Below the pieces are notes generated by a model. That model did not search any database and was not told the DNA's origin. It saw only the letters and a list, made by a program, of their open reading frames with translations. This document shows, piece after piece, positions 19,117 through 64,000 of a DNA stretch of 64,000 nt. The translations under genes and the position numbers were made by a program. Each line of letters begins with the position of its first letter. Within the stretch, counting starts at the first letter, position 1. The stretch spans positions 328,989 to 392,988 of the forward strand of contig OZ244924.1 in assembly GCA_965221925.1 (NCBI GenBank), in the 5' to 3' direction. The DNA comes from Dehalococcoidia bacterium. GTDB taxonomy: Bacteria; Chloroflexota; Dehalococcoidia; Lucifugimonadales; UBA2985.

Positions 19117-19126
19117 GATATCGGTT
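19107..19126. other. left junction of nested element (attL-like): ttgggcaAG|gatatcgg
   Basis: Homology to the split recombinase gene stops at 19116. Confidence 0.65.
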
Positions 19127-19158
19127 ATTCAATCGACACAAAAAGATCAGGTATACAT

Positions 19159-19254
19159 GGGCGGTTGGACTTGAAGCCAGTTGACAACGACGATTGCTCA
19201 CGAAGCCTGCGTGGTTCGAACCCCCATTACCGGGAGCGTACCGAACTGCGAACT
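19159..19254 (+). pseudogene. degenerate tRNA-Val-like relic plus 17-nt flank repeat (relic att region)
   Basis: Starts GGGCGGTT like tRNA-Val and contains GGTTCGAAC. It ends with GTACCGAACTGCGAACT (19238-19254), identical to 17963-17979 just 3' of the real tRNA-Val. The middle does not fold as a tRNA. Confidence 0.45.
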
Positions 19255-19292
19255 TGTTGCTGGGAGGTCTCCATCTGAGGACGGCGAGCTAT

Positions 19293-23293: not shown

Positions 23294-24315
23294 ACCAAAC
23301 CCTCAAGGAGTTTATGGGGCCGTTCCTCCGCCATTCGGAAGGAGCCACAAGAGGCCGTTGACACCAAGTACCGCACGTCACTTACTCCGGGCTGGAGTTC
23401 ACCAGACACGATTCTTGGGAACCCTTCGCCAACCCGGAATGCGTACAGGGACCGAAGGCTGTATCCGATTTCGGAGTACGTGCCTGAGTCATCGCTGAGA
23501 TAACCAGACAGGTCCAGTCTGTGATCCAACAGGTGCAAGCAGCCATTTGCCGAGGCCATTGAACGGACGGAGCCAACCAAGTCAGGCAGCGTCTCGCCAT
23601 GGCCCACTCTGCCATCCAGGGACAGTCCGAGGAGCAACAACGCAACATCGTCCGGAACCTCCAGCTGCCGTTCACTGGAGATCGCCAGACGATCCAGACT
23701 GGCCGCCGTGCTGGTCTTCACCTCAATGCACGTGGCCCCTAGGTGGAAGTCCTGGTCAGAACCCATTGGGCCTCGCCATCCATTCACGGCAGCAGTCATG
23801 CCCACTGCTGGCACGACGACTTCTCTGAGCACCCACAGTTCGCCCCACAATCCCTGTTGTGTCTCCTGGCTCAACCCTCGTGGTCCGAGTCTCCTGAGAA
23901 GCTGTTGCCAGTCTGAGAGCCGCGCAAGAAATCGCCTTAAGCCCTCCCCTTCATCCTCGGGTTGCTCAGCAGCTTCAACCAGATCCCGCACCAAGAGGTC
24001 AAAGATGTCCCGGTGTTCCGAGTCGATCAGGGACAGCACCACCTCAGCCTCGTTGTCTTCCGCCTCCCTGGGGAGGACGCGCACAGTCAATCCACGCGAG
24101 TCCGGAACCTCTGGCAGCCCCGATGCCGAGTTTGCCGCAATGCGGAGTATGAGCATGCGATTCCTAGTGGGAATCTCCAAACCGAGAAATACGTCTCGCC
24201 GTCCGGAAGGCAGCAACCGACGCTGCACCCTTCCGGGAACATCGGCGATGCGGGTGTCCGCCTCCAAGTGACTCCACACCTCTACTAGATTCAACTCTCC
24301 AACTCCTCCTGCCAA
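23290..24315 (-). CDS. PD-(D/E)XK motif protein
   Basis: 341 aa. GLWGELWVL...SDQDFHLGATCIEVKT is a D...E-x-K nuclease-type core. ATGA overlap with the AIPR gene. Confidence 0.6.
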   Translation of the reverse strand: MAGGVGELNLVEVWSHLEADTRIADVPGRVQRRLLPSGRRDVFLGLEIPTRNRMLILRIAANSASGLPEVPDSRGLTVRVLPREAEDNEAEVVLSLIDSEHRDIFDLLVRDLVEAAEQPEDEGEGLRRFLARLSDWQQLLRRLGPRGLSQETQQGLWGELWVLREVVVPAVGMTAAVNGWRGPMGSDQDFHLGATCIEVKTSTAASLDRLAISSERQLEVPDDVALLLLGLSLDGRVGHGETLPDLVGSVRSMASANGCLHLLDHRLDLSGYLSDDSGTYSEIGYSLRSLYAFRVGEGFPRIVSGELQPGVSDVRYLVSTASCGSFRMAEERPHKLLEGLV

Positions 24316-28611: not shown

Positions 28612-28632
28612 ATCTGCGTGTACCTGGTATTC

Positions 28633-29070
28633 TCACTCACGGAACTCCCCTAACCAGCGTACGTTGTCGATGCTTGGGCTTGCCGTCCGATAGAATCGCT
28701 CGTCGGCGGTCCACAGCTCGCAACCGAGGTTCTCGGCAAGCGCCAGATAGTGGGCGTCGTAGGCGGCGCCCTGACCGAATCGACTTGCCATCTCCAACGC
28801 CTTTCCGTGGAGATTCCACGGCTGATGCAACTCAATCTGAGAGGTGAGCAGGTTTCCGATAAGGTCAACCGCCCCCTCAACGCTCAACTCCCCTCGGGTC
28901 ACTCTCTTGTGGAGCGCGTTGGATACCTCGAACGGCAGCAGGTGGGGAGCGGCTGGAGTAACGTCCTCGTTATGCCACACCCGAAGAAGCGCCAGAGCCT
29001 TGTCAGTGTGCTCCTCCCTCACCAACCACTTGAAGGCAAGGCTGGCGTCTACAACCACGAAGCCGCTCAA
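28633..29070 (-). CDS. vapC: PIN-domain toxin (VapC-like)
   Basis: 145 aa. N-terminal VVDASLAFKWL acidic residue, later AYDAHYLALAE and LWTADERF, which is the PIN acidic quartet pattern. 4-nt overlap with the upstream antitoxin gene. Confidence 0.75.
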   Translation of the reverse strand: MSGFVVVDASLAFKWLVREEHTDKALALLRVWHNEDVTPAAPHLLPFEVSNALHKRVTRGELSVEGAVDLIGNLLTSQIELHQPWNLHGKALEMASRFGQGAAYDAHYLALAENLGCELWTADERFYRTASPSIDNVRWLGEFRE

Positions 29071-31597: not shown

Positions 31598-31964
31598 CAC
31601 GACCTCCTTCGTGTTGTGTTGCCTTGTTGATTGCGCCCTTGTGGGCAAAGAAGAAGGGCCGCCCCCGGCTGGAGACGACCCTTGCGTGTTGGGATGGGTT
31701 TGAGCGGCTCGAAACCGTCAGCCTTTGAACCGCCCCACCGTGTACCGTCCCGTTACTTCCATTCCTGTGTCCGTGATTCGTCTATGCCGATGTGACCTCC
31801 TTTCCGTGCTCGATGCCGTTGATCTCCGTCATCCATGTGCCAGTGCCCACAACGCCCGCAGTCCGACGATGAGCCGAATGCTGGAGACGGAGCGGGGTTG
31901 AAGAAGGCGCAGTTCGGCCCAGGGGCAACTCAGGGAAATGGACTCAGGGGGAGTTGCGATGAAA

Positions 31965-32455
31965 TGTGGGAGAACCGACCGGCCTGCAGATCGACCACAG
32001 GACGGCCCGGTGAGAGATGCAGCGAGACCCGGGAGCTACGTCGGTAACGTCCTGGGATGCTGCGTCAGGGGGAAGCGGCCAGCCTACAACGCAATCGCAG
32101 ACCGGCGCGTGGTGAAGCTGCGGCCAGTTCCACAGGAACCATGCCGCAGACGTGAGGAACCGGCCAGTGTGCAGGGCGCACTCCGACCAGGGTGTCCGAG
32201 GGCCGAGGCGCAGAGACGCATCGCCCTGGGTGACCCGTCTTCCGAACCGGCATCGGAGGAGCAGTGCTCGACCCCTCGACCGGCTCACGCAGCGGGAAGG
32301 CGCTTATCCCTCGTGGAACGCCGTCGGGAGAGCAGGGCTCGATCCGTCAGGCCGCTCCGGGTCGGGGATGGACCCTCCAGGTTTCTAGGCACGAAACGCT
32401 GGAAAAAGCCAGAAACTGCGTCAATTATCGCCCGAACATCCGACCGAATGGAAGG
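31965..32455 (-). repeat. conserved non-coding blocks, left copy (inverted relative to 53408-53877)
   Basis: Manual alignment shows three blocks of about 80-110 nt that are nearly identical to the right copy, separated by a diverged ~150-nt segment. Confidence 0.8.
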
Positions 32456-32534
32456 CCCCGGACGGGCAAATCAGCCCCTACGCCCAAATTGCTCGCTCCG
32501 ACTTAGCTCCTATTTCGCAGCCAGCGGCCCGGGC

Positions 32535-33431
32535 CTACTTCCTCCACAGTCCGAAGGTGAGGACGCGCCGGAGCCACCGACGCAGCAGCGCCCGGTTGCG
32601 CTCCGCTCGCACCCGCTTGAGGTCCTGAGTCCGCTCCCAGACCTTATCCCGCCGGTCGAACTCGTCCCAGGGGAACGAGGCGGGGGGCAGCGTCAGCTCG
32701 TGCTCCCCAACGAGGGCGATCTCCATCTCCAACATTGGCTCCTGAACCTCCGTCCTGTCCAGCGTGGCGCCGGTCTTCAGGGTCTTGAGGAACTCGGCCC
32801 GCACCCTCCGCCACTCGACGATCATCGGCGCCGCTTCGCCGTACACCAGGTCTTCGTCGGGTTCGGCTTCCGGGGTCACCAGCTGGGGATACGTCCTTGG
32901 GCGAACGTACCTTCGCTTCGTCGGCTCAGTCTCTGCTCCGGTCGGAGAGGGCGTCTCGGACTCGCTCCTTCCCGCCTCCAGCCGCACCAGCCGCCGCTCC
33001 ACGTGCCGCATCGACCTTGCGTGCTCCTCCCTGAACGCCTTGACCTCTCCCACGACGGCTTCGAGGCCGCCGCGCAGCTCCCGCTCCAAAGCAGACACCC
33101 GCTCCACCAACGCATCGACTCGATCCCGCTGCTGGGCGGCAGCCGAGCCGCCCCCCAGCAGCAGGTGCCGCTCCAAAGCGTCGGCCATCCGGTCGGTCAA
33201 CCGGCCCGTCTCCTCGTGACGCACCAGGGTTCGGTAGTTGACGCCCAGCGCCGCCGCCGTCTGCACCTTGCCCTCAGCTTCGATCATGTCGCGCAGCAGC
33301 GCCAACAGCCGCATATGCCGCAGGCTGTCCAGACTCCGGCTCGATTCGGGGTAGAAATCCTGTTCACTCACGCCTTCGGCCTCCCCGATTGCACTTCTAC
33401 AACTTTCGTAGGGCGCACTGTCCACTCGCAC
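32535..33431 (-). CDS. coiled-coil/HTH-like protein, paralog of 52385-53329 (unknown function)
   Basis: Aligns with the right-arm copy (LGVNYRTLVRHEETGRLTDRMADALERHL vs LGVAYRTLVKAEESGELTGRMSDALERLL; both end RRVLT(F/L)(G/W)LWRK). The real start may be GTG 33372 (GGAGG SD). Confidence 0.6.
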   Translation of the reverse strand: MRVDSAPYESCRSAIGEAEGVSEQDFYPESSRSLDSLRHMRLLALLRDMIEAEGKVQTAAALGVNYRTLVRHEETGRLTDRMADALERHLLLGGGSAAAQQRDRVDALVERVSALERELRGGLEAVVGEVKAFREEHARSMRHVERRLVRLEAGRSESETPSPTGAETEPTKRRYVRPRTYPQLVTPEAEPDEDLVYGEAAPMIVEWRRVRAEFLKTLKTGATLDRTEVQEPMLEMEIALVGEHELTLPPASFPWDEFDRRDKVWERTQDLKRVRAERNRALLRRWLRRVLTFGLWRK

Positions 33432-38695: not shown

Positions 38696-40159
38696 TCATT
38701 TTGGCACCTGGTCCAGGGCGGACAAAGGCCTCCTGTCGAGGGAATGCGGCGGCGGTAGAATCCACGAGTCGCCTAGGATGCCATGCTCGGCAAGGGTCTC
38801 TGCGTTGGAGGTGATGATGGGCGCCCCCTTCACCGTGTCTGCGACGTCGAGGAAGGCGTCCTCGCTGCTGGGGGACTCGAACACGAAGACCACCCGGGGC
38901 AGGCGTCCCTCGTGGTCTCGCTCAGCCCATCCGCTCAGGAAGTACCGCTGGTAGGACTTCAGGCGGGAGCGGGCACGCTTCGGCGTCGTGGCCCGACGCT
39001 CGAACTCCAGGAGGAAGGGACGACACCGGCCCTGGTACTCCAGGGTGAAGGAGGCGTCGGGGTGAATCACGTAGGTGGTCCAGTCGTAGCGGTAGCCGAT
39101 GCTGGAGCGATGAGTGGGCAGCAGGTCGAACAGGTCGTAGTCGGGGGAGCGGGCGACCTCGGCAGACAGGGCGGCGGCGAAGCCAGTGACGCCGGCGTGG
39201 TGTCGCAACTGGGATGCCAGGGCTCGCACGGCGGTTCCGGCGTAGACATCGGAGTTCAGGTACAGAGGCTCGGCGCTCCAGCGGTCGAGGGTCAACCCCA
39301 CGGCGGCCCGGTCCCTGCGGGCCAGGTACGTCAGCCCCTCGTCGGTGAGCACGTGCAGGGAGTCATCCTCCCGCGCGAGGCCATGCTGCCGCAGGGAGCG
39401 GAGCACCTGATTGACCCGGCGCAGGGTGACCCCGCCCATCAGTCCGGCAAGCTGCTCGCGGGTGCCCAGCGGCCATGCTGCCAGCAGGTCGAGGGCGTCC
39501 TTCTCGGCGCTGGTCAGCTGAACCGAGAGGGTTGATGTGAGTTGCTCAGTAGGCTCCGGCATGGAGGCCTGCACGCCGGAGGGGTAGAGCGTGCCGGGCT
39601 TCGGCTTCGGGTTGTCACGAAGGAAGGGGTAGGACGACTCCAGCAACCGCTCCGTCCACGCTATGATACCTGCCGGGGATCCGTCGGGTGAGATACGCAC
39701 TGGAGGGTTTTCGCCCAGGCCGCTACCACACTGCTGCCAGACGACCCCGGTGTGGTCTCCGGCCAGAAGCTCTCCCTCCGTCACCGCGAAGGTCCTGCGG
39801 TGCTCCCTCGGATCGCCCAGGGAGCGGATGGCCCTGCGGGTGGCCTGGTCTGCGTGGGTCAACACCAGGGTGACGAAGGGCGTCTCGAAGCTGTGCAGCC
39901 GCTCGATGCTCCTCAGGCGGTAGCGCAGATTGGCCGTGGGCAGCGTAGGCCCCTGGCGAACCAGGCCGATGGAGCGGCCCCCGGACAGGGTGAGCAGCAT
40001 GTCGTAGGGGCCGTTGCGGTAGTGGTCCACGCGCACGGGGTCGTTGTGGGGGTCGGCGCCGGCGATCATGGCGGCGACGCGGTAGAGCACAGCCACGGCG
40101 TCCAGCCGCTCGGCCAGCAGCCGGAACCACTGCTTCGACACCGGGTAGGCCCCCAGCAT
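38696..40159 (-). CDS. replication-relaxation-like (Replic_Relax-type) protein, paralog 1
   Basis: Winged-helix segment (LTSAEKDALDLLAAWPLGTREQLAGLMG...LRSLRQHGLA), then HHAGVTGF and IHPDASF...FLLEFERR motifs. Paralogous to 41386-43056. Confidence 0.5.
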   Translation of the reverse strand: MLGAYPVSKQWFRLLAERLDAVAVLYRVAAMIAGADPHNDPVRVDHYRNGPYDMLLTLSGGRSIGLVRQGPTLPTANLRYRLRSIERLHSFETPFVTLVLTHADQATRRAIRSLGDPREHRRTFAVTEGELLAGDHTGVVWQQCGSGLGENPPVRISPDGSPAGIIAWTERLLESSYPFLRDNPKPKPGTLYPSGVQASMPEPTEQLTSTLSVQLTSAEKDALDLLAAWPLGTREQLAGLMGGVTLRRVNQVLRSLRQHGLAREDDSLHVLTDEGLTYLARRDRAAVGLTLDRWSAEPLYLNSDVYAGTAVRALASQLRHHAGVTGFAAALSAEVARSPDYDLFDLLPTHRSSIGYRYDWTTYVIHPDASFTLEYQGRCRPFLLEFERRATTPKRARSRLKSYQRYFLSGWAERDHEGRLPRVVFVFESPSSEDAFLDVADTVKGAPIITSNAETLAEHGILGDSWILPPPHSLDRRPLSALDQVPK

Positions 40160-40519: not shown

Positions 40520-40606
40520 CAGCAGGAGTCCCCCTGAACACAGAGAGGGCCAGGTGGTTCATACCACCCGGCCCTCTCTGTCGTTCCGCCCTTGCCGCCT
40601 CTTCTC

Positions 40607-41389
40607 TTACCGCCTGACGACGCCCTGGGGGTCTCGCCTCGAAGCTCTGCGGTTGAGGGCTTGGTCGAGGGTCCCGAAAGCCCGCCCGATGCCCAGGCGC
40701 TCCACCCTGGGCGACGGCTCCTCTTCCTGCTTGAGGAGGGCGTGGGCGATGAGGTCGGCCATCTGGAGCAGGCAGTCGGCGTGGGAGCTTCGGAAGGCGG
40801 GGCCGCCGATGACTCGCTCGATGGGGATGTCTTTCGTGGCCTGGCCGTCCTCCCACGCCTCGTATTTGCTGGGCACGGGGTTGCGGCTCCTGAGCCTGCG
40901 GTAGAGGCGTGAGACCATCTCCTCCCGACCCTCGTCGAAGATGAGGAAGGCGTGGCGGTTGGCGGATGCGACGGAAGAGTTGATGCGGTTGAGGAGCCGG
41001 TCCAGGTTGACCCGCTCGTAGCCCATCACGTCGGGCTTGTGGAGGCAGACGTTGACGACCTCCACGCCGCCGATGCTCCTTGCGGCGTCCTCGATGACGC
41101 GCAGCCCGCCCAGGAAGACCTCGGCCCCGTGCTTCGGGGAGAGCCTGCGGCCGGCGTTGCCCTGGCGGGCCGGCTTGCCCCGTCCGGCCAGCAGAGCCTG
41201 CCCCGTACCCGATACGGGGTCGCAGGCGTGCAGCTCCCGGCTTGTCGGGACGCTGTAGTCGCCCGCCAACGCCGTGCGCCAGTCCTGAATGCGGCCATGC
41301 AGGCCGTTCCATCGTTCGGCGTTCACGCCCAGGGCGGAGCGGACGTAGTAGCGGGGACCCTCGGACTCGTCGATGTAATAGATTCTCAT
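40607..41389 (-). CDS. DUF3800 family protein
   Basis: Start set at MRIYYIDESEG (ATG 41389, ATGA overlap with the upstream gene). The IYIDES N-terminus and C-terminal ...LLQMADLIAHAL are typical of DUF3800. Confidence 0.6.
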   Translation of the reverse strand: MRIYYIDESEGPRYYVRSALGVNAERWNGLHGRIQDWRTALAGDYSVPTSRELHACDPVSGTGQALLAGRGKPARQGNAGRRLSPKHGAEVFLGGLRVIEDAARSIGGVEVVNVCLHKPDVMGYERVNLDRLLNRINSSVASANRHAFLIFDEGREEMVSRLYRRLRSRNPVPSKYEAWEDGQATKDIPIERVIGGPAFRSSHADCLLQMADLIAHALLKQEEEPSPRVERLGIGRAFGTLDQALNRRASRRDPQGVVRR

Positions 41390-43056
41390 GGCCTTGGTTC
41401 TCCTTGCATGTCGGTCAGGGGGCGCACCGGCTCGAAGCCTCCGCCCGGGGCGAACCAGGCCCGTCCCAGCGGCCCCTCCCGCTCGACCAGCTCCCGGTGG
41501 GAGGCCAGCAGGGGGACGGCGGTCCTGAGACGGTCCATCTCGTCCTGCGCCACTCTCAGGAAGTGGGTCTGAGCGATGTCGTCGTCGAAGACGATCAGGA
41601 CGGCGGGCGGCGCGCCGTGGTCGTCGATGGGCCGGCGAGAGGAGTAGTAGCGCAGGTAGGGGGCCAGCCGCGCCGCCATCGTGACTGGGCGCACCGCCCG
41701 CCGCTCCCACTCCAGGAAGAAGGGCCACACGGCGCCTTCACGTCGCAGGATGCCGAAGGCGTCGGGGTGGACGGAGCGCATCCCGCCGAAGTAGCTGAAG
41801 TAGCGGGAGGCCCTGCGGGGCGGGTCGAGCTGGCCGGTCTCCCAGCCCAGGTCGCGGGCCTGGGTTGCCAGGGCCGCCATGAAGCCGTGGACGGCTGCGG
41901 TGTGCTCCATGTTGCGCAGGAGCTGGCGGCTTCGCCTGCCGGAGACGCTGCGCCAGTCGCCGGCGTCGGTGGGGGCGGCGCTCCACCGCTTCCTGGCCCC
42001 GCCCACGGCGGCGCGGTCCCTGCGGGCCAGCATCGCCAGCCCCTGGTCGGTGAGGGTGAGGCGTCGCCCCCCAGCGGGGACGCGGGTGACGAGGCCGAAC
42101 CCTTGGAGGGCGGCGGCGATCTCGTAGGTGCGGGTGCGGACGAGGCCCAGCAGCCCGGCCAGGTCGCCCAGGGTGATCCAGGGCCAGTCGGAGATGAGGT
42201 CGAGGGCGCGCTTCTCGGCGGGCTTGAGGGTGGCGGGCAGCAGATAGTCGGGGACCTTCCACCCCGGACCCTCGACGGAGAGGTCGGCTGGGACCGAGAC
42301 CATCCGGGGCTCGTCCTCCTCGGGAAGGAGACTTCCCTTCTCGATCCGGTCGAGGACCGAGCGCAGCTCGACGGAGGCGCTGACCGCGGGCGGGCTCCAC
42401 ACCGGGTCGTCCGGCGACGTCGCGACCGCCTCGCGCTCGAGGGCGAGATAGAAGGGGACGGGGGCGCCGGCCAGCGTCCTGCGGACATGCTTGAGCCGAA
42501 CGTCGTCGGCCATCAGCACGAGAACGGCTCCGGGGAGCGGCCCCTGGCGGGGCAGCCTCCACATCCGGTTGGAGAAGCCGGTCCTGTCGGCGGTGAGCCC
42601 CTGCCTGACGATGCCGACGGTGCGGCCGCCGGGAAGCTCGACGGCGGCGTCCAGGGTCGAGGCCCTGTACCACCGGAACCGTATGGGGTATGCGACGCCG
42701 GAGACGGCGACCGCCAGCCGGTAGATCGCGGCGAGGGAGTCGAGCCGTCCCATCAGGTTGCGCCGCCACTCGGCGGATACGGGGCGGCCGCGTACGAGCT
42801 CGTCCAGGGAGGTCTCCTCCTCCTCGGCCAGCCGCCCCAGCCCGGCGGCGGTGAGGTGGAACCTCTGGGTCGATGAGGGAAATAGGGCGGTGGCGTGGGG
42901 CACGGCGGCGCAGAAGCCGCCGGAGTCCAGCCTGTCGACGGCCTCGTGGACCGCGGCCTTCGACCAGCCGGTGACGGCCACCATCTCCGTCCGGTCGAGG
43001 AAGGGCATCGACGCCAGGGCTCGGAGGGTCTGGGCTTCACATCCCTCAGTTCTCAT
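41386..43056 (-). CDS. replication-relaxation-like protein, paralog 2
   Basis: Same architecture as 38696-40159 (LKPAEKRALDLISDWPWITLGDLAGLLG, EHTAAVHGF, VHPDAFG...FFLEWERR). Confidence 0.5.
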   Translation of the reverse strand: MRTEGCEAQTLRALASMPFLDRTEMVAVTGWSKAAVHEAVDRLDSGGFCAAVPHATALFPSSTQRFHLTAAGLGRLAEEEETSLDELVRGRPVSAEWRRNLMGRLDSLAAIYRLAVAVSGVAYPIRFRWYRASTLDAAVELPGGRTVGIVRQGLTADRTGFSNRMWRLPRQGPLPGAVLVLMADDVRLKHVRRTLAGAPVPFYLALEREAVATSPDDPVWSPPAVSASVELRSVLDRIEKGSLLPEEDEPRMVSVPADLSVEGPGWKVPDYLLPATLKPAEKRALDLISDWPWITLGDLAGLLGLVRTRTYEIAAALQGFGLVTRVPAGGRRLTLTDQGLAMLARRDRAAVGGARKRWSAAPTDAGDWRSVSGRRSRQLLRNMEHTAAVHGFMAALATQARDLGWETGQLDPPRRASRYFSYFGGMRSVHPDAFGILRREGAVWPFFLEWERRAVRPVTMAARLAPYLRYYSSRRPIDDHGAPPAVLIVFDDDIAQTHFLRVAQDEMDRLRTAVPLLASHRELVEREGPLGRAWFAPGGGFEPVRPLTDMQGEPRP

Positions 43057-50192: not shown

Positions 50193-50338
50193 TCGTTTTC
50201 TCCTCTCTGTCTTCAGAGTGTTCCGCTTGCGTTCTTCCGTTCCGTTGCGTCCGCTCGCCTACTGGCACATCGCTCCACCTCCTTCGCTTGATCGTTGGCG
50301 CGAATCCCGTTCGCGCCGTTCTGAGTTGTCGTTTTCAG

Positions 50339-52384: not shown

Positions 52385-53329
52385 ATGGACGAGAAGCGGG
52401 TGAACGGCACAGAGGCGGATGAGGCCCAGGCGACGGAGGCGCAGTGGGACGAGGACGAGGCCGGCGGGACGCTGGAGGACGGCACGCTGCCTGTCGGCGA
52501 GGGGAGCGACGGCCTGGACGTGGCGAAGATGCGGCGGCTCAGGCTCACCGGGTTCCTGCGGGAGCTGGTGCGGGCGGAGGGCCGGATGGAGGCGGCGGAG
52601 CTGCTGGGAGTGGCGTACCGCACGCTGGTGAAGGCCGAGGAGTCGGGCGAGCTGACCGGGCGCATGAGCGATGCGCTGGAGCGGCTGCTGGGCACGGGCG
52701 AGGACCCCGAAGCGGCGAGGCTGCGGGAGCGCGTCGGCGCGCTGGAGGAGCGCGTGGAGGCGCTGGCGAAGGAGATGCGGGACGGCCTCGAAGAGGTCAG
52801 GTCCTCCGTCGCTGGCGTCGAGGCCGGAGACAGAGCGGACGGACAGACTCAGGATGGGGCGAACGGTCGGGTCGATGGTCAGGCCGGGGGGCATGGCAAG
52901 AGGGCGGGCCGGTCGGAGACCAGGGCCGCCCCTCCGGTTGCGGGGTTAGGCCCGAAGAGTCCCTTCGCTGCGCGGCGGCTGGACCCGGAGATCGTCACCG
53001 AGGAGCCTGCCGACGATGACGCCGAGGTCTACGGCGCGGCGTGGCCGCTGGTCGAGGAGTGGCGAGAGCGGCGGTTCGGGCACCCCCGCCAGGGGAAGAG
53101 CCTGTCGTGGCTGGCGACGGAGAAGCGGCTGCTGACGTTGGAGCTGGCGATGCTGGAGGAGCACGGGCTGACGCTGCCTCCTGAGAAGCAGCCGCTCAGG
53201 GGGTTCGGGCGCAAGGGTCAGACCAGCTGGCGCAGGAAGGCGCTCTACGACACGCAAGTGGCGTTGAGAAAGCGGGAGTTGCTGCGCTGGGTGCGGCGGG
53301 TCCTCACCCTGTGGCTGTGGCGGAAGTAG
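52385..53329 (+). CDS. coiled-coil/HTH-like protein (unknown function), paralog of 32535-33431
   Basis: 314 aa with a GAGGAGG SD. Divergently oriented to the T4SS-like operon. Confidence 0.6.
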   Translation: MDEKRVNGTEADEAQATEAQWDEDEAGGTLEDGTLPVGEGSDGLDVAKMRRLRLTGFLRELVRAEGRMEAAELLGVAYRTLVKAEESGELTGRMSDALERLLGTGEDPEAARLRERVGALEERVEALAKEMRDGLEEVRSSVAGVEAGDRADGQTQDGANGRVDGQAGGHGKRAGRSETRAAPPVAGLGPKSPFAARRLDPEIVTEEPADDDAEVYGAAWPLVEEWRERRFGHPRQGKSLSWLATEKRLLTLELAMLEEHGLTLPPEKQPLRGFGRKGQTSWRRKALYDTQVALRKRELLRWVRRVLTLWLWRK

Positions 53330-53407
53330 GGCCTGGCTGCGGTGTTGGCTGCGTTGCCACATCGCGGCAAGTGATTTGGGTCGAGATGGCCCCAAACTCC
53401 CTCGGAA

Positions 53408-53877
53408 GCCTTCCATCCGGTCGGATGTTCGGGCGATAATTGACGCAGTTTCTGGCTTTTCCAGCGTTTCGTGCCTAGAAACCTGGAGGATTCCCGTCCC
53501 CCGAATCCGGGACCGGCTGCATAGGATCGAGCCTTGCTCTCCGAACAGCCACCCAGGGGTCGAACCGGAAGGATTGAGCCTCGCTCTCCCGATGGTCGCC
53601 CCGGAGGACACATTCGCAGCGGTTGGAGCGTCTCTCGCTTCGGCCCCTCGGACACCCTGGTCGGAGTGCGCCCTGCACACTGGCCGGTTCCTCACGTCTG
53701 CGGCATGGTTCCTGTGGAACTGGTCGCAGCTTCACCACGCGCCGGTCTGCCATTGCAAGCTGGCTGGCCGCTTCCCCTTCGCGCAGCATCCCAGGACGTT
53801 ACCGACGTAGCTCCCGGGTCTCGCTGCGTCTCACCGGGCCGTCCTGTGGTTGATCTGCAGGCCGGTCGGTTCTCCCC
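53408..53877 (+). repeat. conserved non-coding blocks, right copy
   Basis: Near-identical to the reverse complement of 31965-32455 in three blocks (about 53408-53490, 53648-53750, 53766-53877). Confidence 0.8.
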
Positions 53878-54050
53878 CATTCCATAGCAGCTCCCACGAG
53901 TCCGTTCCCGTGATGTGACCCTGGCCGAGCTGCGTCTTCTTTCAACACGGCGTCTCCCTCGTTCGGCTCATCGTCGGACTGCGGGCGTCGTCGGCACGGC
54001 CACACGGATTCAACGGCAACGGCATGAGATTCAGCAAGGAGGTAGCGCAC

Positions 54051-54323
54051 ATGGACAGGCAAGTTGGTCGGTATCAGAAGGTCGAACGGCAGGTGATCGG
54101 CGACCGCGTGGTCCTCAACCCACGCACCCGCCTCTGCTCCCTGCGAGACGCCGAGGGCAACGTCTTCGACACGTTCAGGCTGTCTCTCGAGGTCTGCGGC
54201 TGCGGGTACTCCTTCGCGCGGGCGGGGGTGGGCTACAGAGGCTCGGACGGCTGGTACTGCAAGCGATGCGGGCAGCTCACACATTGGACGGGGAGCAATC
54301 CGCGAGCGACCCGGCCCTCCTGA
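54051..54323 (+). CDS. small Cys-rich (zinc-ribbon-like) protein
   Basis: ATG 54051 has an AAGGAGGT SD. Contains CGCG ... CKRCG cysteine pairs. A truncated homolog start (MEVTGRYTVGRFKG*) is present in the left arm. Confidence 0.5.
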   Translation: MDRQVGRYQKVERQVIGDRVVLNPRTRLCSLRDAEGNVFDTFRLSLEVCGCGYSFARAGVGYRGSDGWYCKRCGQLTHWTGSNPRATRPS

Positions 54324-54437: not shown

Positions 54438-54839
54438 ATGCACGTCAAGGACATCAAGGCAACGGTTTCAAGGGTCAAGGGACTCGCGGTCAAGGCGGGC
54501 GGGTTCATGCGGCGGCACAAGCGGCTGACAATAGCGGTCGTGGTCGCGGCGCTGCTGCTCGGGCCGCTGGTGACGACTGACGGCGAGCTGGTCTTCCTGA
54601 ACGCGGTCGGCCTCGGCCTCGGTGCGCTGCTGCTCAGGCGGTTCATCAGGCCCGGAGGCAGGCAGCGAACGGGACGGACGCAACAGGCACAACGGCAACG
54701 GACGGCAAAGGCAACAACACAGAACGAAGGAGGACACGATGACGACGCAAGCAACGACGATTGGTGGGACTGGGACAAGGCCGCGGCCAAGCCTCGAAGA
54801 GCTGGTCGACCGGCTGATAGCGGCGATGTTCAGGGCTGA
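54438..54839 (+). CDS. small membrane protein
   Basis: GGAAAGGAGG SD and two hydrophobic helices (LTIAVVVAALLLGPLV, VFLNAVGLGLGALLL). Its 3' end overlaps the next gene by about 100 nt, so the true end is uncertain. Confidence 0.4.
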   Translation: MHVKDIKATVSRVKGLAVKAGGFMRRHKRLTIAVVVAALLLGPLVTTDGELVFLNAVGLGLGALLLRRFIRPGGRQRTGRTQQAQRQRTAKATTQNEGGHDDDASNDDWWDWDKAAAKPRRAGRPADSGDVQG

Positions 54840-55206
54840 GCCGGAGAGGGCGCCGCAGGCGGAACCCCCCAGCGTGGCCCGCAGCGTCCATGAGGCGCGG
54901 CGGCTGCGGCAGGCGGGGGACATCGACGGGGCGCTGGAGGTCCTCGCCGGCGTGGACACGGCGGGGGCGGTGACTACGAAGGAGGCGCGGTGGGCCTACG
55001 CCGAATGGCAGGCGCTGGCGAAACGGCGCTTCGGTGACCGGGACGCGCTGGTCTACAGCCAGGGCACGGGCAAGGCAGCGGCGCTGGTTCCCACGGGCGA
55101 CGGGACGCTTGAGGTCGCGGCGGTCCTGGGGATGCGCTGGGAGCCGGGCAAGCTGGTCTCCCGGCGCAGCCTGCGGGGTCTGCGGCCCCTGAGCGGAGGT
55201 GCGTGA
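54739..55206 (+). CDS. hypothetical protein (intact copy of the 31081-31597 pseudogene)
   Basis: ATG 54739 has a GAAGGAGGA SD. Its stop overlaps the primase start. Confidence 0.55.
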   Translation: MTTQATTIGGTGTRPRPSLEELVDRLIAAMFRAEPERAPQAEPPSVARSVHEARRLRQAGDIDGALEVLAGVDTAGAVTTKEARWAYAEWQALAKRRFGDRDALVYSQGTGKAAALVPTGDGTLEVAAVLGMRWEPGKLVSRRSLRGLRPLSGGA

Positions 55207-56267: not shown

Positions 56268-56546
56268 CGACTCCTTCCCCGCTTCTCACTTCCCACCACA
56301 CTTCCCCTCTACCGGAGCCTGCCTCGCTCCGGCCCTGCTTGCGGGACTCCCTCCCGCTTTCCCGATTCCCACTCTCACCCCCCAGAGCCTGCCCCCGACT
56401 CCGATCGGGGGAGGAGCTATGCCCAATGCACGACGGGCCTTGCCCGCCCACGGCTTCCCGTAGAGCCTGCCCCGTACTTGATACGGGGGGAATCCGCACC
56501 GGCTATTCGCTACAGGAACACACCACACAGACAGAAGGAGACAGAC

Positions 56547-57410: not shown

Positions 57411-57502
57411 CCCGTCCTGACATTCGGGACACGGGAATCGAGCGGGGCCGTCCCTTCCGGGGCCGCCCCGTTCTCCATTTACAGGACAGGAGGACACGAC
57501 CG

Positions 57503-57835
57503 ATGACGACGATGCACACACCCTGGGGACCGCCCCAGGACATCGAGGAGCTGGCCGAGGGCGTCTGGCGGGTGTCCACCGCCAGCCACGGCGGGCTGAA
57601 GCTCAGCCGGGAGCGGTGGCACTCGCTGCCCGACTGCGTCCGGGACGCCATGTTCAACGCGACCTTCGCCGAGGAGGACTGCGAGGAACCCATCGTCAGG
57701 ACGCTCCTGGGTCTCGGCGACGACCGGGAACGGGAGGCGGTGCTCAGGACCGCCGAATACTTCGAGCGGTACGCCCCCGCGCTGTCCTATGTCCGGGGAA
57801 AGGAGGAGCGCCATGACCACGACCACGCGGCCTAG
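57503..57835 (+). CDS. hypothetical protein
   Basis: 110 aa with a CAGGAGGA SD. Its first codons (MTT) and upstream region are homologous to the region upstream of the triple-HTH gene in the left arm. Confidence 0.5.
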   Translation: MTTMHTPWGPPQDIEELAEGVWRVSTASHGGLKLSRERWHSLPDCVRDAMFNATFAEEDCEEPIVRTLLGLGDDREREAVLRTAEYFERYAPALSYVRGKEERHDHDHAA

Positions 57836-58208: not shown

Positions 58209-58303
58209 AGGAGCACGGACAACGGACGCAGGGCGCAACGACGGGGCTGTCTCCACACGGGGGCGGCCCCGCTTCTCATTTACAGGAAGAAGGAGCAAAG
58301 GAC

Positions 58304-59878: not shown

Positions 59879-59986
59879 TCCCACAACCGCAGACCGACGC
59901 CTTCCCAAAGGCGCACACGGGTCCGCTTCCCACCTACAGGGGGCGGCCCCGCTCCTGTTTCTAACCGACTGCGAAAGGAGGCCGAC

Positions 59987-61825: not shown

Positions 61826-63598
61826 ATGAGACCAGCCGAAACTGTACTGAACGTCATACGCGAACGCGGAGAACGAGGATTGCCGCTGGAGAACATCTAT
61901 CGGCTGCTGTACAACCGGGAACTCTACCTGCGGGCCTACGGTCGTCTCTACTCAAACCAGGGAGCGATGACCAAGGGAACCACCGCAGAGACCGTGGACG
62001 GTATGTCACTGGCGAAGATCGACCGCATCATCGAAGCCCTGCGCTACGAGCGGTTCCGGTGGACGCCGGTGCGACGGGTCAACATTCCCAAGCCTAACGG
62101 CAAGACCCGCGCCTTGGGCCTACCGACATGGACGGACAAACTGCTGCAAGAGGTCATCCGGATGCTTCTGGAAGCCTACTACGAGCCGCAGTTCTCCGAC
62201 CGCTCCCACGGCTTCCGGCCCGACCGGGGGTGCCACACCGCTTTGGGCGAGGTGGTCACTCACTGGACCGGTGTCCGCTGGTTCGTCGAGGGAGACATCA
62301 AGGGGTGCTTCGACAACATCGACCATGAGGTCATGCTGTCGGTGCTCGGAGAAAAGCTTCACGACAACCGTTTCCTCAACCTGCTCAAGTACCTACTGAA
62401 GGCGGGTTACTTGGAGGATTGGCACTATGGCCGCACCCTGAGCGGTACGCCGCAAGGCGGCGTGGTCAGCCCAATCCTCGCCAACGTCTACTTAGACCGG
62501 TTGGACAGATTCGTCGAAAGGGTGCTGATTCCAGCACATACCCGTGGCACAGCCCGAAGAGTCAACCGTCCGTGGAATGCGTTGAAGGGCCGAATGGCGT
62601 ACCAGAAGGAAAAGGGGAACTACACGCTGGCGGCGCAACTGCGCAAGCAGATGCAACAACTCCCGTCAGTCGATCCTCATGACCCTGGATTCCGCAGGCT
62701 CCGATACGTCCGATACGCAGACGACTTCGTGCTGGGATTTAGTGGGCCAAAAGCCGAAGCCGAGCAGATAAAAGAGTCCCTGAAGACGTTCCTGCGCGAT
62801 ACACTCAAGCTGGAGCTGTCCAGGGAAAAGACCCTCATAACCCATGCCACCAGCCAGGCGGCCAAGTTCCTCGGCTATGAACTCGTGAACCAGCAGGTCA
62901 ACGACAAGCTCGACCACACAGGTCGGCGCAGCGTCAATGGTCGTATCGGCTTACGAGTTCCCGCCAAAGTCATCGAGCAACACTGCCAAGCCTACATGAG
63001 CAACGGCAAACCGGCACACCGCAGCGTGCTGATACACGATGAGGACTATTCCATCGTGAGCAAGTATCAATCGGAGTTCCGGGGCGTCGTTCAGTACTAC
63101 CTGCTGGCCCAGAACGTCTCCCACTTCGGGAAATTGCAATGGGTCATGGGACAGTCGCTGACCAAAACCCTTGCGAGCAAGCACAAAACCACGACCCGGA
63201 AGGTGTTCCGGCGCTACCGGAGCACCGCACTAACCGAGCACGGGGAACGGGCTTGCCTCAAGGTCGAAGTCCAGCGGGGCAATGGGAAACGCCCACTGGT
63301 GGCACAGTTCGGTGGCATACCCCTGAAGCGGAACCGGCAGGCAGTTCTCGCCGACCAGAAGCCCCAGCGGTACAGGTTTGAACGCAACGAGCTTGTCAAA
63401 CGGCTCCTAGCGGACGAATGTGAGATGTGCGGCTCAACGGTGGATGTCGAAGTCCATCACATCCGCGCACTTCGCGACTTGAACGTGAAAGGCCAACGGG
63501 AGAAGCCCAAGTGGGTACAAATCATGGCGGCGCGAAAACGCAAGACCCTCGTGGTCTGCCGAACGTGTCACATGGACATCCACGCCGGGCGCAAGTAA
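61826..63598 (+). CDS. group II intron reverse transcriptase/maturase with C-terminal HNH endonuclease domain
   Basis: RT blocks (RVNIPKPNGKTRALGLPTWTDKLLQ, SHGFRPDRGCHTAL, RYADDFVLGF), a maturase X region and an HNH domain (CEMCGS...VHHIRAL...CRTCHMDIHAG). Confidence 0.9.
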   Translation: MRPAETVLNVIRERGERGLPLENIYRLLYNRELYLRAYGRLYSNQGAMTKGTTAETVDGMSLAKIDRIIEALRYERFRWTPVRRVNIPKPNGKTRALGLPTWTDKLLQEVIRMLLEAYYEPQFSDRSHGFRPDRGCHTALGEVVTHWTGVRWFVEGDIKGCFDNIDHEVMLSVLGEKLHDNRFLNLLKYLLKAGYLEDWHYGRTLSGTPQGGVVSPILANVYLDRLDRFVERVLIPAHTRGTARRVNRPWNALKGRMAYQKEKGNYTLAAQLRKQMQQLPSVDPHDPGFRRLRYVRYADDFVLGFSGPKAEAEQIKESLKTFLRDTLKLELSREKTLITHATSQAAKFLGYELVNQQVNDKLDHTGRRSVNGRIGLRVPAKVIEQHCQAYMSNGKPAHRSVLIHDEDYSIVSKYQSEFRGVVQYYLLAQNVSHFGKLQWVMGQSLTKTLASKHKTTTRKVFRRYRSTALTEHGERACLKVEVQRGNGKRPLVAQFGGIPLKRNRQAVLADQKPQRYRFERNELVKRLLADECEMCGSTVDVEVHHIRALRDLNVKGQREKPKWVQIMAARKRKTLVVCRTCHMDIHAGRK

Positions 63599-63735
63599 TC
63601 CGCGCAAGCAAAAGTAGGTAGTGCCCTCAGCATCGGCAGCCCCAAGCGGGCTGGCGCGTTCCCTCCCTGCCCCGGTACTGTGTTGTACGACCCAGCCGCG
63701 GTAATAAGGAGTGGACGCAAGAAAGGAGATGCAAC

Positions 63736-63891
63736 ATGAAACAACGACCGAACGCCCGCAGCATCGGAGCCGGAATCGCGCTCGGCATCGGGGTTGGCGT
63801 AGCCCTAGGCGTGACACAGGATAACATCGCTCTTGGCGTGGGAGTAGGAATCGCCTTGGGCGTCAGTGTCGCTTTGAGCCTGAAGCCATGA
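63736..63891 (+). CDS. 51-aa glycine-zipper-type small membrane peptide encoded inside the intron, downstream of the RT ORF
   Basis: AAAGGAG SD 7 nt before the ATG. MKQRPNARSIGAGIALGIGVGVALGVTQDNIALGVGVGIALGVSVALSLKP. Below the ORF-track length cutoff and found by hand. Confidence 0.4.
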   Translation: MKQRPNARSIGAGIALGIGVGVALGVTQDNIALGVGVGIALGVSVALSLKP

Positions 63892-63947
63892 CGACGCTAG
63901 GCAGTGGTGACACTGCCTAGACACTACCACTTTGTAAAGACACTGGA

Positions 63948-63981
63948 GAGCCGGATGCGGTGAAAGCCGCACGTCCGGTTC
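63948..63981 (+). ncRNA. group II intron domain V
   Basis: GAGCCGGATGCGGTGAAAGCCGCACGTCCGGTTC: AGC catalytic triad, a 2-nt bulge and a GAAA tetraloop. Matches the 34-nt domain V consensus architecture. Confidence 0.85.
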
Positions 63982-64000
63982 GGAAGGGGGCCGACGGAAA

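Follow-up and report, generated by a model that had tools for sequence, protein, structure and literature searches.

A previously undescribed multi-hairpin RNA of about 500 nt in integrative elements of Dehalococcoidia

Introduction

Among the closest described systems is canT, the conjugation-associated antiterminator RNA of Tn916 (Wirachman & Grossman 2024), an ICE non-coding region with active fragments of 341-452 nt and many predicted stem-loops, which is cis-acting and orientation-specific and is needed to read through terminators into the ICE replication genes (PMC11658703). In conAn of pLS20 the gene of the ConAn1 protein is followed by a large conAn2 RNA region (~300-380 nt); conAn heads a long conjugation (T4SS) operon with internal terminators and is restricted to Firmicutes (PMC8191782). 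The pLS20 conjugation operon is furthermore described to carry a 456-nt leader with the zipper-type attenuator cATT, in which one long imperfect stem is extendable and sequesters a terminator (PMC13401043). Phage HK022 put RNAs and the EAR RNA from the eps operon in Bacillus are, as cited in the canT study, cis-acting RNAs located a short way downstream of a promoter that render the polymerase resistant to terminators (PMC11658703).

Here we describe an element of ~0.5 kb from a 64,000-nt stretch of a Dehalococcoidia genome (the window), in which an ICE (right arm) and a small T4SS-less integrative element (left arm) carry one copy each. An initial annotation had pointed out three non-coding blocks shared by the two arms and had offered an oriT, a replication origin or a structured RNA as explanations. 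Our analysis showed the blocks to be parts of one element, which in the right arm spans ~53447-53943 on the + strand, and favoured the structured RNA on the basis of covariation, strand-specific G.U pairs, RNA-specific stability, a promoter-like element and terminator-like hairpins at and after the 3' end. We estimate the probability that the element is a functional structured RNA at roughly 0.85. Bacterial RNAs of more than 400 nt whose structure is backed by covariation are rare, and every new class of them has been informative. RNA-based control of ICE gene expression is so far not known outside a small number of Firmicutes elements (canT, conAn).

Architecture of the right-arm copy

The element lies in the same orientation as the genes on either side of it and is composed of a promoter-like -35/-10 pair, at least nine sense-strand hairpins and a terminator-like hairpin, T1, with a U-rich tract. 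The features of the right-arm copy and its surroundings are given below.

52385-53329, + strand: anchor gene (314 aa), directly upstream of the RNA
53411-53440, + strand: promoter-like element, -35-like TTCCAT (53411-53416) and -10-like GATAAT (53435-53440) with an 18-nt variable spacer
53461-53486, + strand: P1 hairpin, CCAG-C-GUUUC / GAAAC-CUGG, the near-invariant core of block 1
53488-53508, + strand: P2 hairpin, GGAUU / AAUCC
53509-53554, + strand: hairpin unit 1, an inner hairpin GGA-UC-GAGC CUU GCUC UCC set off from an outer stem by an internal loop
53556-53602, + strand: hairpin unit 2, related to unit 1 and in tandem with it, not present in the left-arm copy
53621-53645, + strand: hairpin GGUUGGAGCG / CGCUUCGGCC, predicted from minimum-free-energy folds
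53657-53687, + strand: block 2 hairpin a, CUGGUCGG..GUGC GCCCU GCAC..CUGGCCGG
53698-53729, + strand: block 2 hairpin b, with GGUUCC UGU GGAACU as inner hairpin on the outer stem CUGCGGC / GGUCGCAG
53738-53877, + strand: block 3 region, with hairpin GCCGGUC..GGCUGGC and, after it, two more predicted hairpins
53887-53943, + strand: T1, a long hairpin with the closing stem GCAGCUC / GAGCUGC; the U-rich tract GUCUUCUUUC comes next
54036-54042, + strand: ribosome-binding site AAGGAGG, conserved in the alignment
54051-54323, + strand: first downstream ORF (90 aa), variable between elements

When the upstream sequences of 50 distinct loci were stacked, the two hexamers of the promoter-like element proved conserved and the 17-18 nt spacer between them did not, and subfamilies with TTGACA or TTGCCA as -35 became visible. 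The promoter-like element of the window lies below threshold in a simple sigma-70 consensus scan; such a scan of the leader, combined with a terminator scan, returned nothing, and both the promoter-like element and T1 were recognised only by comparison within the family. From the sequence we infer a transcription start near 53447. The first downstream ORF is present only in loci L001 and L018 and has no Pfam match.

In its AlphaFold model the anchor protein combines an XRE/Cro-like helix-turn-helix (HTH) domain with a coiled coil and, at the C-terminus, a helical domain that is uncharacterised. Both anchor proteins of the window had hits to 0 Pfam families at E <= 0.01 and no match in NCBIfam or PHROG, and their more than 1,000 homologs are unannotated. 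A Foldseek comparison with the PDB gave Cro/cII/XRE HTH domains throughout the top matches, none of them significant. The HTH domain looks like one that binds DNA and not RNA.

Distribution and database searches

The family was sampled as 70 loci that were picked solely through the anchor protein. The covariance model R1 found one strong match (63-141 bits) in 56 of these 70 loci, two in the window, and always on the strand of the anchor gene. Eight further members were found in metagenomes by DNA pattern alone, seven of them with the anchor gene upstream. Since only 8 of the 52 stretches returned by this pattern scan of JGI metagenomes were real according to the covariance model, the DNA pattern alone is not specific. 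Each mobile element carries one copy, and the hosts of the members found are uncultivated Dehalococcoidia without exception. In T4SS-type ICEs the RNA precedes a replication/recombination operon with genes for primase, Rad52, SSB, RadC and nucleases, and in small serine-recombinase elements it precedes the gene of a multi-HTH regulator. The anchor family with its more than 1,000 members is likely the partner of the RNA.

The ~500-nt multi-hairpin RNA of these integrative elements is previously undescribed. A search of the window against Rfam 15 at the gathering threshold returned just a group II intron and two tRNAs. With permissive settings, 53200-54200 had chance-level matches only (E at least 0.79), and the leader variants of loci L020 and L045 yielded nothing relevant in Rfam. 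DNA similarity searches against 72,556 plasmids and 50,697 phage records gave no match, a pattern scan of IMG/VR gave 0 matches, and no literature match for the RNA element was found.

Covariation and strand specificity

The blocks are conserved in homologs from other genomes, and covariation, proposed in the initial annotation as a means to tell structure from simple conservation, is evident over much of the element. In the 5' core 97.7% of the alignment cells are paired, compared to 27-55% with the partners slid, and 75 cells with a change on both sides were counted vs. 19.4 +/- 3.5 in shuffles. P1 is 98.5% paired and contains a pair that changes from G-C (25) to C-G (8); none of 500 shuffles reached the observed score. 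P2 varies at pairs 45:62 (A-U 21, G-C 21, G.U 12) and 47:60 (U-A 34, C-G 12). The repeated GAGCC..GCTCTCC units noticed earlier turned out to be hairpins of the form GGAUYGAGC-loop-GCUCUCC. In unit 1 the inner stem is invariant with a variable loop of 3-4 nt, and the outer stem is exchanged at pairs 73:105 (C-G 33, U-A 12, U.G 6) and 74:104 (U-A 33, C-G 20); unit 2 gives a weak secondary covariance-model match and is present or absent as a module across loci.

Block 2 is 95.7% paired, compared to 20-45% with slid partners, and has eight pairs changed on both sides. Helices 1-2 of alignment A6, which form hairpin a, are 91-99% paired, and a U.G pair is replaced by U-A or C-G in relatives. In hairpin b five of the six inner-stem pairs have changed on both sides (e.g. 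A-U 13 / G-C 13 and G-C 13 / C-G 12), and the outer pair 65:89 occurs as G-C 13, G.U 11 and A-U 1. The alternative pairings that had been considered for the GGTTCC and GGAAC repeats of block 2 are not needed, as these form a simple covarying stem. Covariation was also detected in the terminator-like hairpin T2 and in unit 3, both described below, as well as in the first hairpin of block 3 (pair 20:56, G-C 18 / A-U 6). The remainder of block 3, placed by its minimum-free-energy fold and by conservation in a subset of loci, is the least resolved part of the element.

Variants of the element differ by insertion or deletion of entire hairpins, and G.U pairs are abundant at covarying positions. Fold z-scores of 53455-53945 are -2.85 for the + strand as RNA, -1.02 with DNA parameters and +0.35 for the - strand as RNA. 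The blocks do not behave as part of a translated gene, since the reading frame is not conserved: the U-run of block 1 has a 1-nt indel in about 20 of 55 sequences, and further differences that break the frame are a 5-nt indel in the P2 loop, loops of either 3 or 4 nt and the indels of entire hairpins.

Several other structural readings were considered. An alternative 5' helix, in which CAGUUUCUGGC pairs with GCC-U-AGAAA-C-CUG in competition with P1, was rejected as a supported switch; it is 91% paired via conservation alone, its covariation score equals the shuffled mean and it suffers 9-15 uncompensated breaks. K-turn, CsrA-site (GGA) and UUCG/GNRA tetraloop readings of the repeat units were dropped on inspection by eye for their poor fit. 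A reading as type III toxin-antitoxin RNA repeats was likewise discarded, with only 2-3 diverged units present and the downstream ORFs variable and without family match.

The left-arm copy and comparison of the arms

The small T4SS-less integrative element encodes its own copy of the RNA and of the anchor gene.

31898-32453, - strand: second copy of the element, putative RNA ~32418-31898
32535-33431, - strand: left-arm anchor gene (298 aa)
31653-31684, - strand: T2, a terminator predicted by the terminator scan, between the leader and the frameshifted p155 gene

The left-arm copy (covariance-model match 32286-32413, - strand, 105 bits) contains a promoter-like pair (32453-32448 / 32429-32424), P1 (32402-32377), P2, unit 1, a unit 3 module and blocks 2 and 3; it also has a T1, in which two G-to-A changes disrupt the stem. 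The unit 3 module covaries, with the support limited to its inner hairpin and closing stem. T2 has the form of a canonical intrinsic terminator with a GC-rich stem of 11-14 bp (13-14 bp at 31653-31684), a tetraloop and CUUCUUCUUUG, and its family alignment A7 comprises 11 pairs with compensatory changes in four. T2 is absent from the window's own ICE.

Global alignments bore out that the three non-coding blocks are much more alike between the arms than their surroundings, and blastn recovered the blocks independently. Block 1 (53408-53490 vs. the reverse complement of 32374-32456) has 81 matches over 83 positions with one mismatch and one one-base indel, the two differences counted before. For block 2 (53644-53750 vs. 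the reverse complement of 32097-32203; 105/107) we found two differences instead of the single one that had been claimed. Block 3 (53766-53877 vs. the reverse complement of 31964-32078) differs little, as reported, with 105 matches, five mismatches, a 2-nt indel and end gaps, which amounts to an identity of ~90-94%. It is indeed conserved up to 53877, but similarity does not end there and runs on to the ribosome-binding site at 54036-54042. Outside of the blocks, identities between the arms are 59% in the spacer between blocks 1 and 2, 73% in the segment past block 3, 62% in the final 300 nt of the upstream gene and 79% in p155, the next conserved gene. The upstream proteins, which had been judged by eye as about half identical, share 40% of their residues.

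The spacer of ~150 nt is strongly diverged between the arms, as had been noted, but it is not diverged as such: its right-arm version recurs with 84-98% identity in some 40 further genomes. Family-wide, spacer variation consists of the gain and loss of entire hairpins, and the arms differ here because their sets of modules differ, with unit 2 in the right arm and the unit 3 module in the left arm. Nucleotide-level selection and gene conversion had been put forward as alternative causes of the likeness of the blocks, and both appear to apply, each to different blocks. Block 1 is near-invariant across the whole family and is therefore alike in the two arms because of strong purifying selection. 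Blocks 2 and 3 represent one of several compensated alleles that cut across the phylogeny of the neighbouring gene, which argues for recombination; they are alike because both arms carry the same recombining allele. This allele was also found alongside unrelated anchor lineages, and in locus L001 the identity is 100% over about 560 nt with differing flanking genes. The ICE and the small element of the window have allele a of block 2 in common. A general rule that co-resident elements share their block 2 alleles fails, because L002, L003 and L013, three loci of one genome, carry different variants.

Terminator-like hairpins downstream

T1 was recognised in at least 27 distinct loci, each time in the corresponding position, with a tract of UUUUU or UUUUUU in many of them. 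Its stem is conserved in sequence and shows no covariation, and its U-tract is weak in the window copy (UCUUCUUUC). It resembles an intrinsic terminator in part only, being a long branched hairpin with a U-tract that is strong in some loci, and T1 is a candidate 3' end of the RNA or a candidate attenuator. Three strong terminator-like hairpins were furthermore identified within the gene array downstream in the window.

57442-57471, + strand: terminator-like hairpin separating the Rad52 gene from the DUF7007 gene; stem of 13 bp with a T-rich tract after it
58240-58273, + strand: terminator-like hairpin between the TSCPD gene and the nuclease gene; stem of 13-15 bp, 10 of the pairs being G-C, with CTTCTCATTT after it
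59918-59951, + strand: terminator-like hairpin between the SSB and RadC genes, 13-bp stem

In the downstream arrays of 25 ICE loci, strong terminator-like hairpins are found 46 times in sense (+) vs. 8 times in antisense (-) orientation. On the T4SS side, similar features of hairpin and T-tract number 18 on the + strand, antisense to the genes, vs. 4 on the - strand, and therefore not all such hairpins fit a simple reading as operon terminators. The internal hairpins could also be ordinary gene-end terminators of separate transcription units.

Possible functions

Our analysis points to an RNA that might serve as a processive-antitermination or attenuation leader gating the replication/recombination genes, a reading that we hold at slightly less than even odds. 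RNA polymerase starting at the element's own predicted promoter would transcribe the structured RNA, and this RNA would affect the elongating polymerase in cis, perhaps aided by a host factor or by the upstream protein. The polymerase would then pass T1, T2 and the further predicted terminators between the downstream genes, and transcription entering from elsewhere would be stopped.

A free-standing, trans-acting ncRNA of ~0.5 kb that ends at T1 and serves as a regulatory or immunity RNA or as part of a ribonucleoprotein seems unlikely to us. Block 2 alleles a-d would then be specificity determinants, and downstream genes would be expressed via incidental read-through. Such a discrete unit would be bounded by the promoter-like start and the hairpin and U-tract at the end, and it would agree with an RNA that is conserved when the first downstream ORF is not, as well as with block 2 alleles that are discrete, fully compensated, each highly conserved and shuffled between element lineages, allele a being present in both the ICE and the small element of the window. 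However, the position and orientation ahead of the operon are invariant, a ribosome-binding site follows within about 100 nt, T1 is weak as a terminator in many loci, among them the window, alleles are not consistently common to co-resident elements (the three loci of one genome mentioned above), and target complementarity was not identified.

The remaining explanations treat the region as DNA or as devoid of function. For an oriT or another single-stranded DNA signal, e.g. a priming site, the + strand hairpins would be recognised by the Replic_Relax proteins or the primase, and T4SS-less elements would carry the same sequence for mobilisation by the ICE. The element does sit between the T4SS genes and a leading-region-like set (SSB, RadC, Rad52, primase) and is common to ICEs and T4SS-less elements, the transferred strand would show strand-specific hairpins as well, and the upstream HTH protein could be a relaxosome accessory factor. 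We nevertheless regard this proposal of the initial annotation as improbable: known oriTs do not resemble a region of ~0.5 kb with at least nine covarying hairpins and indels of entire hairpins, G.U (in DNA, G.T) pairs abound in the stems, the region reaches a z-score of only -1.02 as DNA vs. -2.85 as RNA, promoter-like element and ribosome-binding site frame the region as a transcribed leader, and, P1 aside, no invariant single-stranded nick-like motif beside an inverted repeat was identified. The Replic_Relax (PF13814) genes (38696-40159 and 41386-43056) lie at a distance of 10-14 kb, which is not decisive because an oriT can be distant. A double-stranded control region, be it an iteron replication origin or an operator array in which the upstream HTH protein would bind the repeated GAGC..GCTC units, is very improbable in our view. 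The units do occur in tandem with a period of ~47 bp and a short palindrome next to the genes of an HTH protein and a primase, but they are hairpins with compensated outer stems, in which complementarity is conserved rather than sequence and loop lengths vary, so that the origin or iteron array suggested earlier is not supported. Helices are swapped, G.U pairs would be A.C mismatches on the opposite strand, the palindrome spacers (the loops) have 3 or 4 nt with a constant 2-nt bulge on one arm only, and there is no AT-rich unwinding region. Hardly credible, finally, is that the region has no function of its own and is a mere remnant of recent gene conversion between co-resident elements or part of a protein-coding gene. 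While blocks 2 and 3 look like a recombination tract and long ORFs overlap the region (53376-53810 and 53534-53887), compensatory changes accompany its conservation across 56 independent loci, indels breaking the frame are common, and the coding signature of the overlapping ORFs does not exceed the expectation for DNA with 66% G+C.

Returning to the leader that gates replication/recombination genes, the anchor gene and the ~0.5 kb RNA might together be a portable and novel kind of regulatory cassette in mobile elements of Chloroflexota. In that case we would be dealing with a large RNA antiterminator or gatekeeper unrelated to put, EAR, conAn2 and canT, with its invariant 5' domain engaging RNA polymerase or a partner protein and the interchangeable, compensated block 2 alleles a-d acting as specificity determinants, and small T4SS-less elements would carry the cassette to couple their own activation to a co-resident helper ICE. 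Taken jointly, these proposals are speculative, with the odds clearly against all of them holding at once. If the RNA is an antiterminator or gatekeeper, RNA control of ICEs extends to an unrelated, high-GC uncultivated phylum, and this would suggest that RNA control is a general way of keeping integrated elements silent. By the covariance model, a whole family of ICEs and of satellite-like elements can be recognised in MAGs of Dehalococcoidia, and the compensated hairpin alleles provide a natural set for specificity tests.

Comparison with known systems

The put and EAR RNAs have roughly 70-120 nt. The RNA described here is far larger, and its region has no Rfam match. It is similar to oriTs in being located between transfer genes and a leading-region-like set, in T4SS-bearing as well as T4SS-less elements, and in its strand-specific hairpins, but differs from known oriTs in size, number of covarying helices, RNA-specific stability, framing by promoter and ribosome-binding site, and distance from the relaxase-like genes. 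With cATT it shares a long structured 5' leader with a terminator-like hairpin before the first genes of a conjugative-element operon; in contrast to the single cATT zipper it is a chain of separate hairpins, and a test of the 5' end revealed no supported alternative pairing with T1.

As in conAn, a protein gene (stop at 53329) directly precedes a large RNA region that heads an operon of a conjugative element. ConAn1, however, has the domain PF17362 (pXO2-34), whereas the anchor proteins lack PF17362 and look Cro/XRE-like instead; in the present elements, moreover, the T4SS genes run on the other strand, and it is the replication/recombination genes that follow the RNA. canT is found in low-GC elements of Firmicutes and has neither a reported covariation model nor a dedicated upstream partner gene; the present RNA differs from it by tandem hairpin units, modular variants and the HTH-protein gene upstream. 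Homology to canT is unlikely because base composition and host phylum are very different. By description, nevertheless, both are large multi-stem-loop non-coding RNAs of ICEs located upstream of terminators (predicted ones in our case), and the presence of several predicted intrinsic terminators inside the downstream operon is a feature that the present element has in common with both conAn and canT.

Gene context of the two elements

The window is high-GC DNA that carries two related mobile elements in opposite orientation. The right arm is a T4SS-type ICE whose - strand encodes a pair of Replic_Relax proteins together with a coupling protein, VirB4 and TrbL/VirB6. The left arm is a small element with genes for a large serine recombinase, a YhcG/DUF1016 nuclease and an anchor (the protein whose gene lies directly upstream of the RNA); its non-coding region is followed by a gene for a protein that contains three HTH domains.

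52385-53329, + strand, right-arm anchor gene, 314 aa, unannotated
32535-33431, left-arm anchor gene

On the + strand of the right arm the anchor is followed by the non-coding region, two small variable ORFs, the conserved gene p155, a DnaG-like primase and Rad52, and then, in order, by DUF7007, TSCPD, a nuclease, SSB and RadC. The two ORFs between leader and p155 (54051-54323, 90 aa; 54438-54839, 133 aa) had no family match and occupy the spot of the terminator T2 in most related ICEs; the 90-aa ORF contains CxC..CxxC cysteines and was found only in two related loci, L001 and L018. A group II intron (61826-64000) is inserted after RadC and one following gene, with a reverse transcriptase/maturase ORF at 61826-63598 (TIGR04416, E = 5e-81) and an Rfam Intron_gpII match that begins at 63946 and is cut by the window end. 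Elsewhere, genes for tRNA-Pro (8507-8581) and tRNA-Val (17882-17958) and a block of about 10 kb adjoining the left-arm element (about 19000-29000, G+C about 57% vs 62-72% elsewhere, large - strand ORFs) may mark sites of integration or a further island.

The left-arm element shows partial decay: p155, the counterpart of 54739-55206, is frameshifted there (31596-31132), and the primase is an N-terminal stub only (about 31101-30955). In left-arm T1, the hairpin at the putative 3′ end of the RNA (31898-31968, - strand), two G-to-A changes in the closing stem (GCAaCUC / GAaCUGC) break two of seven pairs. Together these changes suggest that the element is decaying though its RNA core is intact.

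Conservation of the non-coding region

Positions 53330-54060 (+) were compared with 32540-31790 (-) by blastn and MAFFT, followed by exact global alignments.

Global alignments between the two arms
Block 1, 83 nt: 81 matches, 1 mismatch, 1 one-base indel
Segment between blocks 1 and 2: 59%
Block 2: 105/107
Block 3: 105 matches, 5 mismatches, 2-nt indel
Segment after block 3: 73%
Upstream gene, 3′ end: 62%
p155, next shared gene: 79%

Since the anchor proteins of the two arms are only 40% identical, these figures confirm the initial annotation, which had described near-identical non-coding blocks amid diverged flanks. The arms have further non-coding pieces in common, 56410-56463 vs 30725-30672 (94% identity) and 57424-57510 vs 30611-30530 (79%); in the latter lies a hairpin resembling a terminator (57442-57471 / 30594-30564), located ahead of DUF7007 in the ICE and ahead of the multi-HTH gene in the small element.

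Related loci were sampled independently of the non-coding sequence: relatives of the anchor protein were looked for in a single genome of each species. The result was 70 loci, essentially all from Dehalococcoidia/Chloroflexota MAGs, with anchor identities from 95% to about 30%; about 20 are small elements resembling the left arm. Homologs without the blocks had been named as evidence against their significance, and the element is present in 56 of the 70: a covariance model of its 5′ core gave exactly one strong match (63-141 bits) in each of these and two in the window, always on the anchor's strand and 100-250 nt past its stop codon. Of the 14 loci without a match, one lies at a contig end and the rest have unrelated DNA after the anchor or belong to distant anchor lineages. 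A second, anchor-independent pattern scan returned no members from viral contigs (IMG/VR) and eight true members from JGI metagenomes, seven with the anchor upstream and one on a contig too short to tell. Synteny is kept, from T4SS genes through anchor, element and 0.7-1.3 kb without a conserved ORF to p155, primase, Rad52 and so on. Across the 70-locus sample, conservation is widest in block 1 and the right-arm segment that follows it (84-98% identity where the protein has 50-75%), so that this intervening segment, initially called strongly diverged, is in its right-arm version among the parts with the widest conservation. For blocks 2 and 3, close conservation is limited to a subset of loci.

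Evidence for RNA structure

The initial annotation had proposed a structured RNA as one candidate and a comparison of covariation with simple conservation as a check, and the result favours the RNA. In the 5′ core (hairpins P1, P2 and unit 1), 97.7% of cells are paired over 26 pairs, as compared to 27-55% after a shift of the partners by 1-3 columns; changes on both sides occur in six pairs, and double-change cells number 75 vs 19.4 +/- 3.5 in column shuffles. Changes include G-C to C-G in P1, a P2 pair found as A-U (21), G-C (21) or G.U (12), and neighbouring pairs of the unit 1 outer stem that occur as C-G, U-A or U.G and as U-A or C-G. The two hairpins of block 2 are 95.7% paired (20-45% when slid), and whole helices are swapped: where the window has the inner stem GGUUCC..GGAACU, already remarked on in the initial annotation, relatives have AACCG..CGGUU, GCUC..GAGC or ACUAC..GUAGU, and five of its six pairs are altered on both sides. 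Covariation also occurs in unit 3, the first hairpin of the block 3 region and T2, and variants gain or lose whole hairpins (unit 2, unit 3, an extra CCCCGUA-UCGAG-UACGGGG hairpin). At variable positions G.U pairs are frequent, corresponding to A.C mismatches on the opposite strand. Folding of 53455-53945 gave z = -2.85 for + strand RNA (0/100 shuffles as stable), -1.02 with DNA parameters and +0.35 for - strand RNA. The element is a structured single strand, most likely RNA.

The T1 stem is kept by sequence and does not covary, which hints at sequence-specific recognition. The motif GCUGCGUC recurs in block 3 (53824-53831) and in the 3′ arm of T1 (53929-53936), and takes the form GCUGCGUGA in unit 3 of the left arm and relatives.

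Selection and recombination

The initial annotation had offered selection or gene conversion for the likeness of the blocks; both selection and recombination act, on different parts of the element. Block 1 (P1) is near-invariant throughout the family, which indicates purifying selection. Blocks 2 and 3 exist as several compensated alleles, and that of the window, allele a, has 93-100% identity across nine loci whose anchors belong to both a right-arm clade (64-94% to the right-arm anchor) and a left-arm clade (73-93% to the left-arm anchor); alleles b, c or d occur at other loci of the right-arm clade. Units are reshuffled as well, since L052 and L053, the loci closest to the left-arm anchor, have a right-arm type unit 2. 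At L001 (CBDCYU010000003.1, 7107-7665) some 560 nt of leader match the window at 100% while anchor (94-95%), primase (84%) and Rad52 (71%) differ, which marks a sharp recombination tract centred on the RNA. Taken together, these comparisons identify the near-identity of blocks 2 and 3 as that of a widely exchanged allele, attributable to recombination within the element family, not to a sequence requirement; conversion between the window's two copies need not be invoked. Mere gene conversion is contradicted by the family data. So is a coding sequence, and no reading frame is conserved across homologs.

Transcriptional framing

The element, about 0.5 kb long, is a conserved sense-strand multi-hairpin structure bounded by signals that resemble a promoter and terminators.

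53411-53416 and 53435-53440, promoter-like hexamers, from the family comparison
53887-53943, T1, candidate 3′ end of the element, long hairpin closed by GCAGCUC/GAGCUGC, then a U-rich tract
31684-31653, T2 of the left arm
57442-57471, 58240-58273 and 59918-59951, strong hairpin-plus-T-tract sites in the short intervals that separate co-directional genes

All subfamilies carry, upstream of P1, a -35-like hexamer (TTCCAT, TTGACA, TTGCCA or GTTCCC), then 17-18 unconserved bases and a -10-like hexamer (GATAAT, TAACAC, TAATAC or GATACT), the whole lying at a nearly fixed distance to the invariant GTTTCTGGCTTTTCCAG; the window's signal fell below threshold in a simple consensus promoter scan. A further small hairpin (53360-53400; 32500-32460, -) stands after the anchor stop codon and before the -35-like hexamer; in the right arm it is AUUUGGG..CCCAAAC, and relatives partly keep it as CCC(A/G)A(A/G)ACCCC. 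In the window the U-rich tract of T1 reads GUCUUCUUUC; many relatives have UUUUU or UUUUUU there. An RBS and a variable first ORF come next. T2, a canonical intrinsic terminator before p155 (or the multi-HTH gene in small elements) at most loci, has an 11-14 bp GC-rich stem, a tetraloop, CUUCUUCUUUG and four covarying pairs; it is absent from the right arm. Across 25 distinct ICE loci, strong hairpin-plus-T-tract sites in the downstream gene array number 46 on the sense and 8 on the antisense strand.

On the T4SS side of 25 related ICE loci, strong features of this type favour the + strand (18 vs 4), the strand antisense to the T4SS genes, as at 50296-50318 in the window. Some just upstream of the anchor look like insulators (at locus L031, 5635-5672); others, between pilin-like and TrbL genes, are unexplained. 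A hairpin of 14 bp at 40545-40576 has T-rich tracts on either strand and so resembles a bidirectional terminator; it separates the two Replic_Relax-containing gene groups.

The anchor belongs to an unannotated family of >1,000 members. Its AlphaFold model (mean pLDDT 66.7) begins with a disordered N-terminus and a four-helix domain; a long coiled-coil helix comes next and is joined by a disordered linker to a C-terminal domain of three helices. A PDB fold search gave no significant match; all top (non-significant) matches of the N-terminal domain are Cro/cII/XRE helix-turn-helix proteins, so the anchor is probably a DNA-binding regulator.

Possible function and comparison with known systems

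The element is linked to this probable regulator gene and stands ahead of a gene array containing terminator-like hairpins. We consider it a functional structured RNA with a probability of about 0.85. How it works is a more tentative matter, for which we give slightly less than even odds to a cis mechanism: the transcript would let polymerase read through downstream terminators, by processive antitermination or attenuation, and thereby gate the element's replication and recombination genes. Among its main rivals is a free ncRNA that ends at T1 and acts in trans; another is an oriT or other single-stranded DNA signal. The latter fits the location and the presence in T4SS-less elements, but does not fit the size, the G.U-rich stems, the stability with DNA parameters or the framing by transcription signals. 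A duplex operator or iteron array, the form in which the replication origin initially suggested was considered, is contradicted by the covariation.

The read-through proposal draws support from three precedents. The canT RNA of Tn916 acts in cis, has multiple stem-loops and active fragments of 341-452 nt, and is needed for transcription to get past terminators into the ICE replication genes (PMC11658703); in the conAn system of pLS20, a large RNA element comes after a protein gene (PMC8191782); and the 456-nt leader of pLS20 is a transcriptional attenuator (PMC13401043). Membership in any of these families is not supported, because a Pfam scan found no PF17362 domain in the anchor, the suggested Rfam search (Rfam 15) matched no family, and host phylum and base composition differ. 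PLSDB plasmids, INPHARED phages and IMG/VR likewise held no matches to the element, and a full-text literature search returned no paper on such an RNA in Chloroflexota elements. The element is of a kind already known, the structured leader or antiterminator-type RNAs of conjugative elements, and within it constitutes a new RNA family with an unusual size, an architecture of modular repeats and, upstream, a regulator gene of its own.
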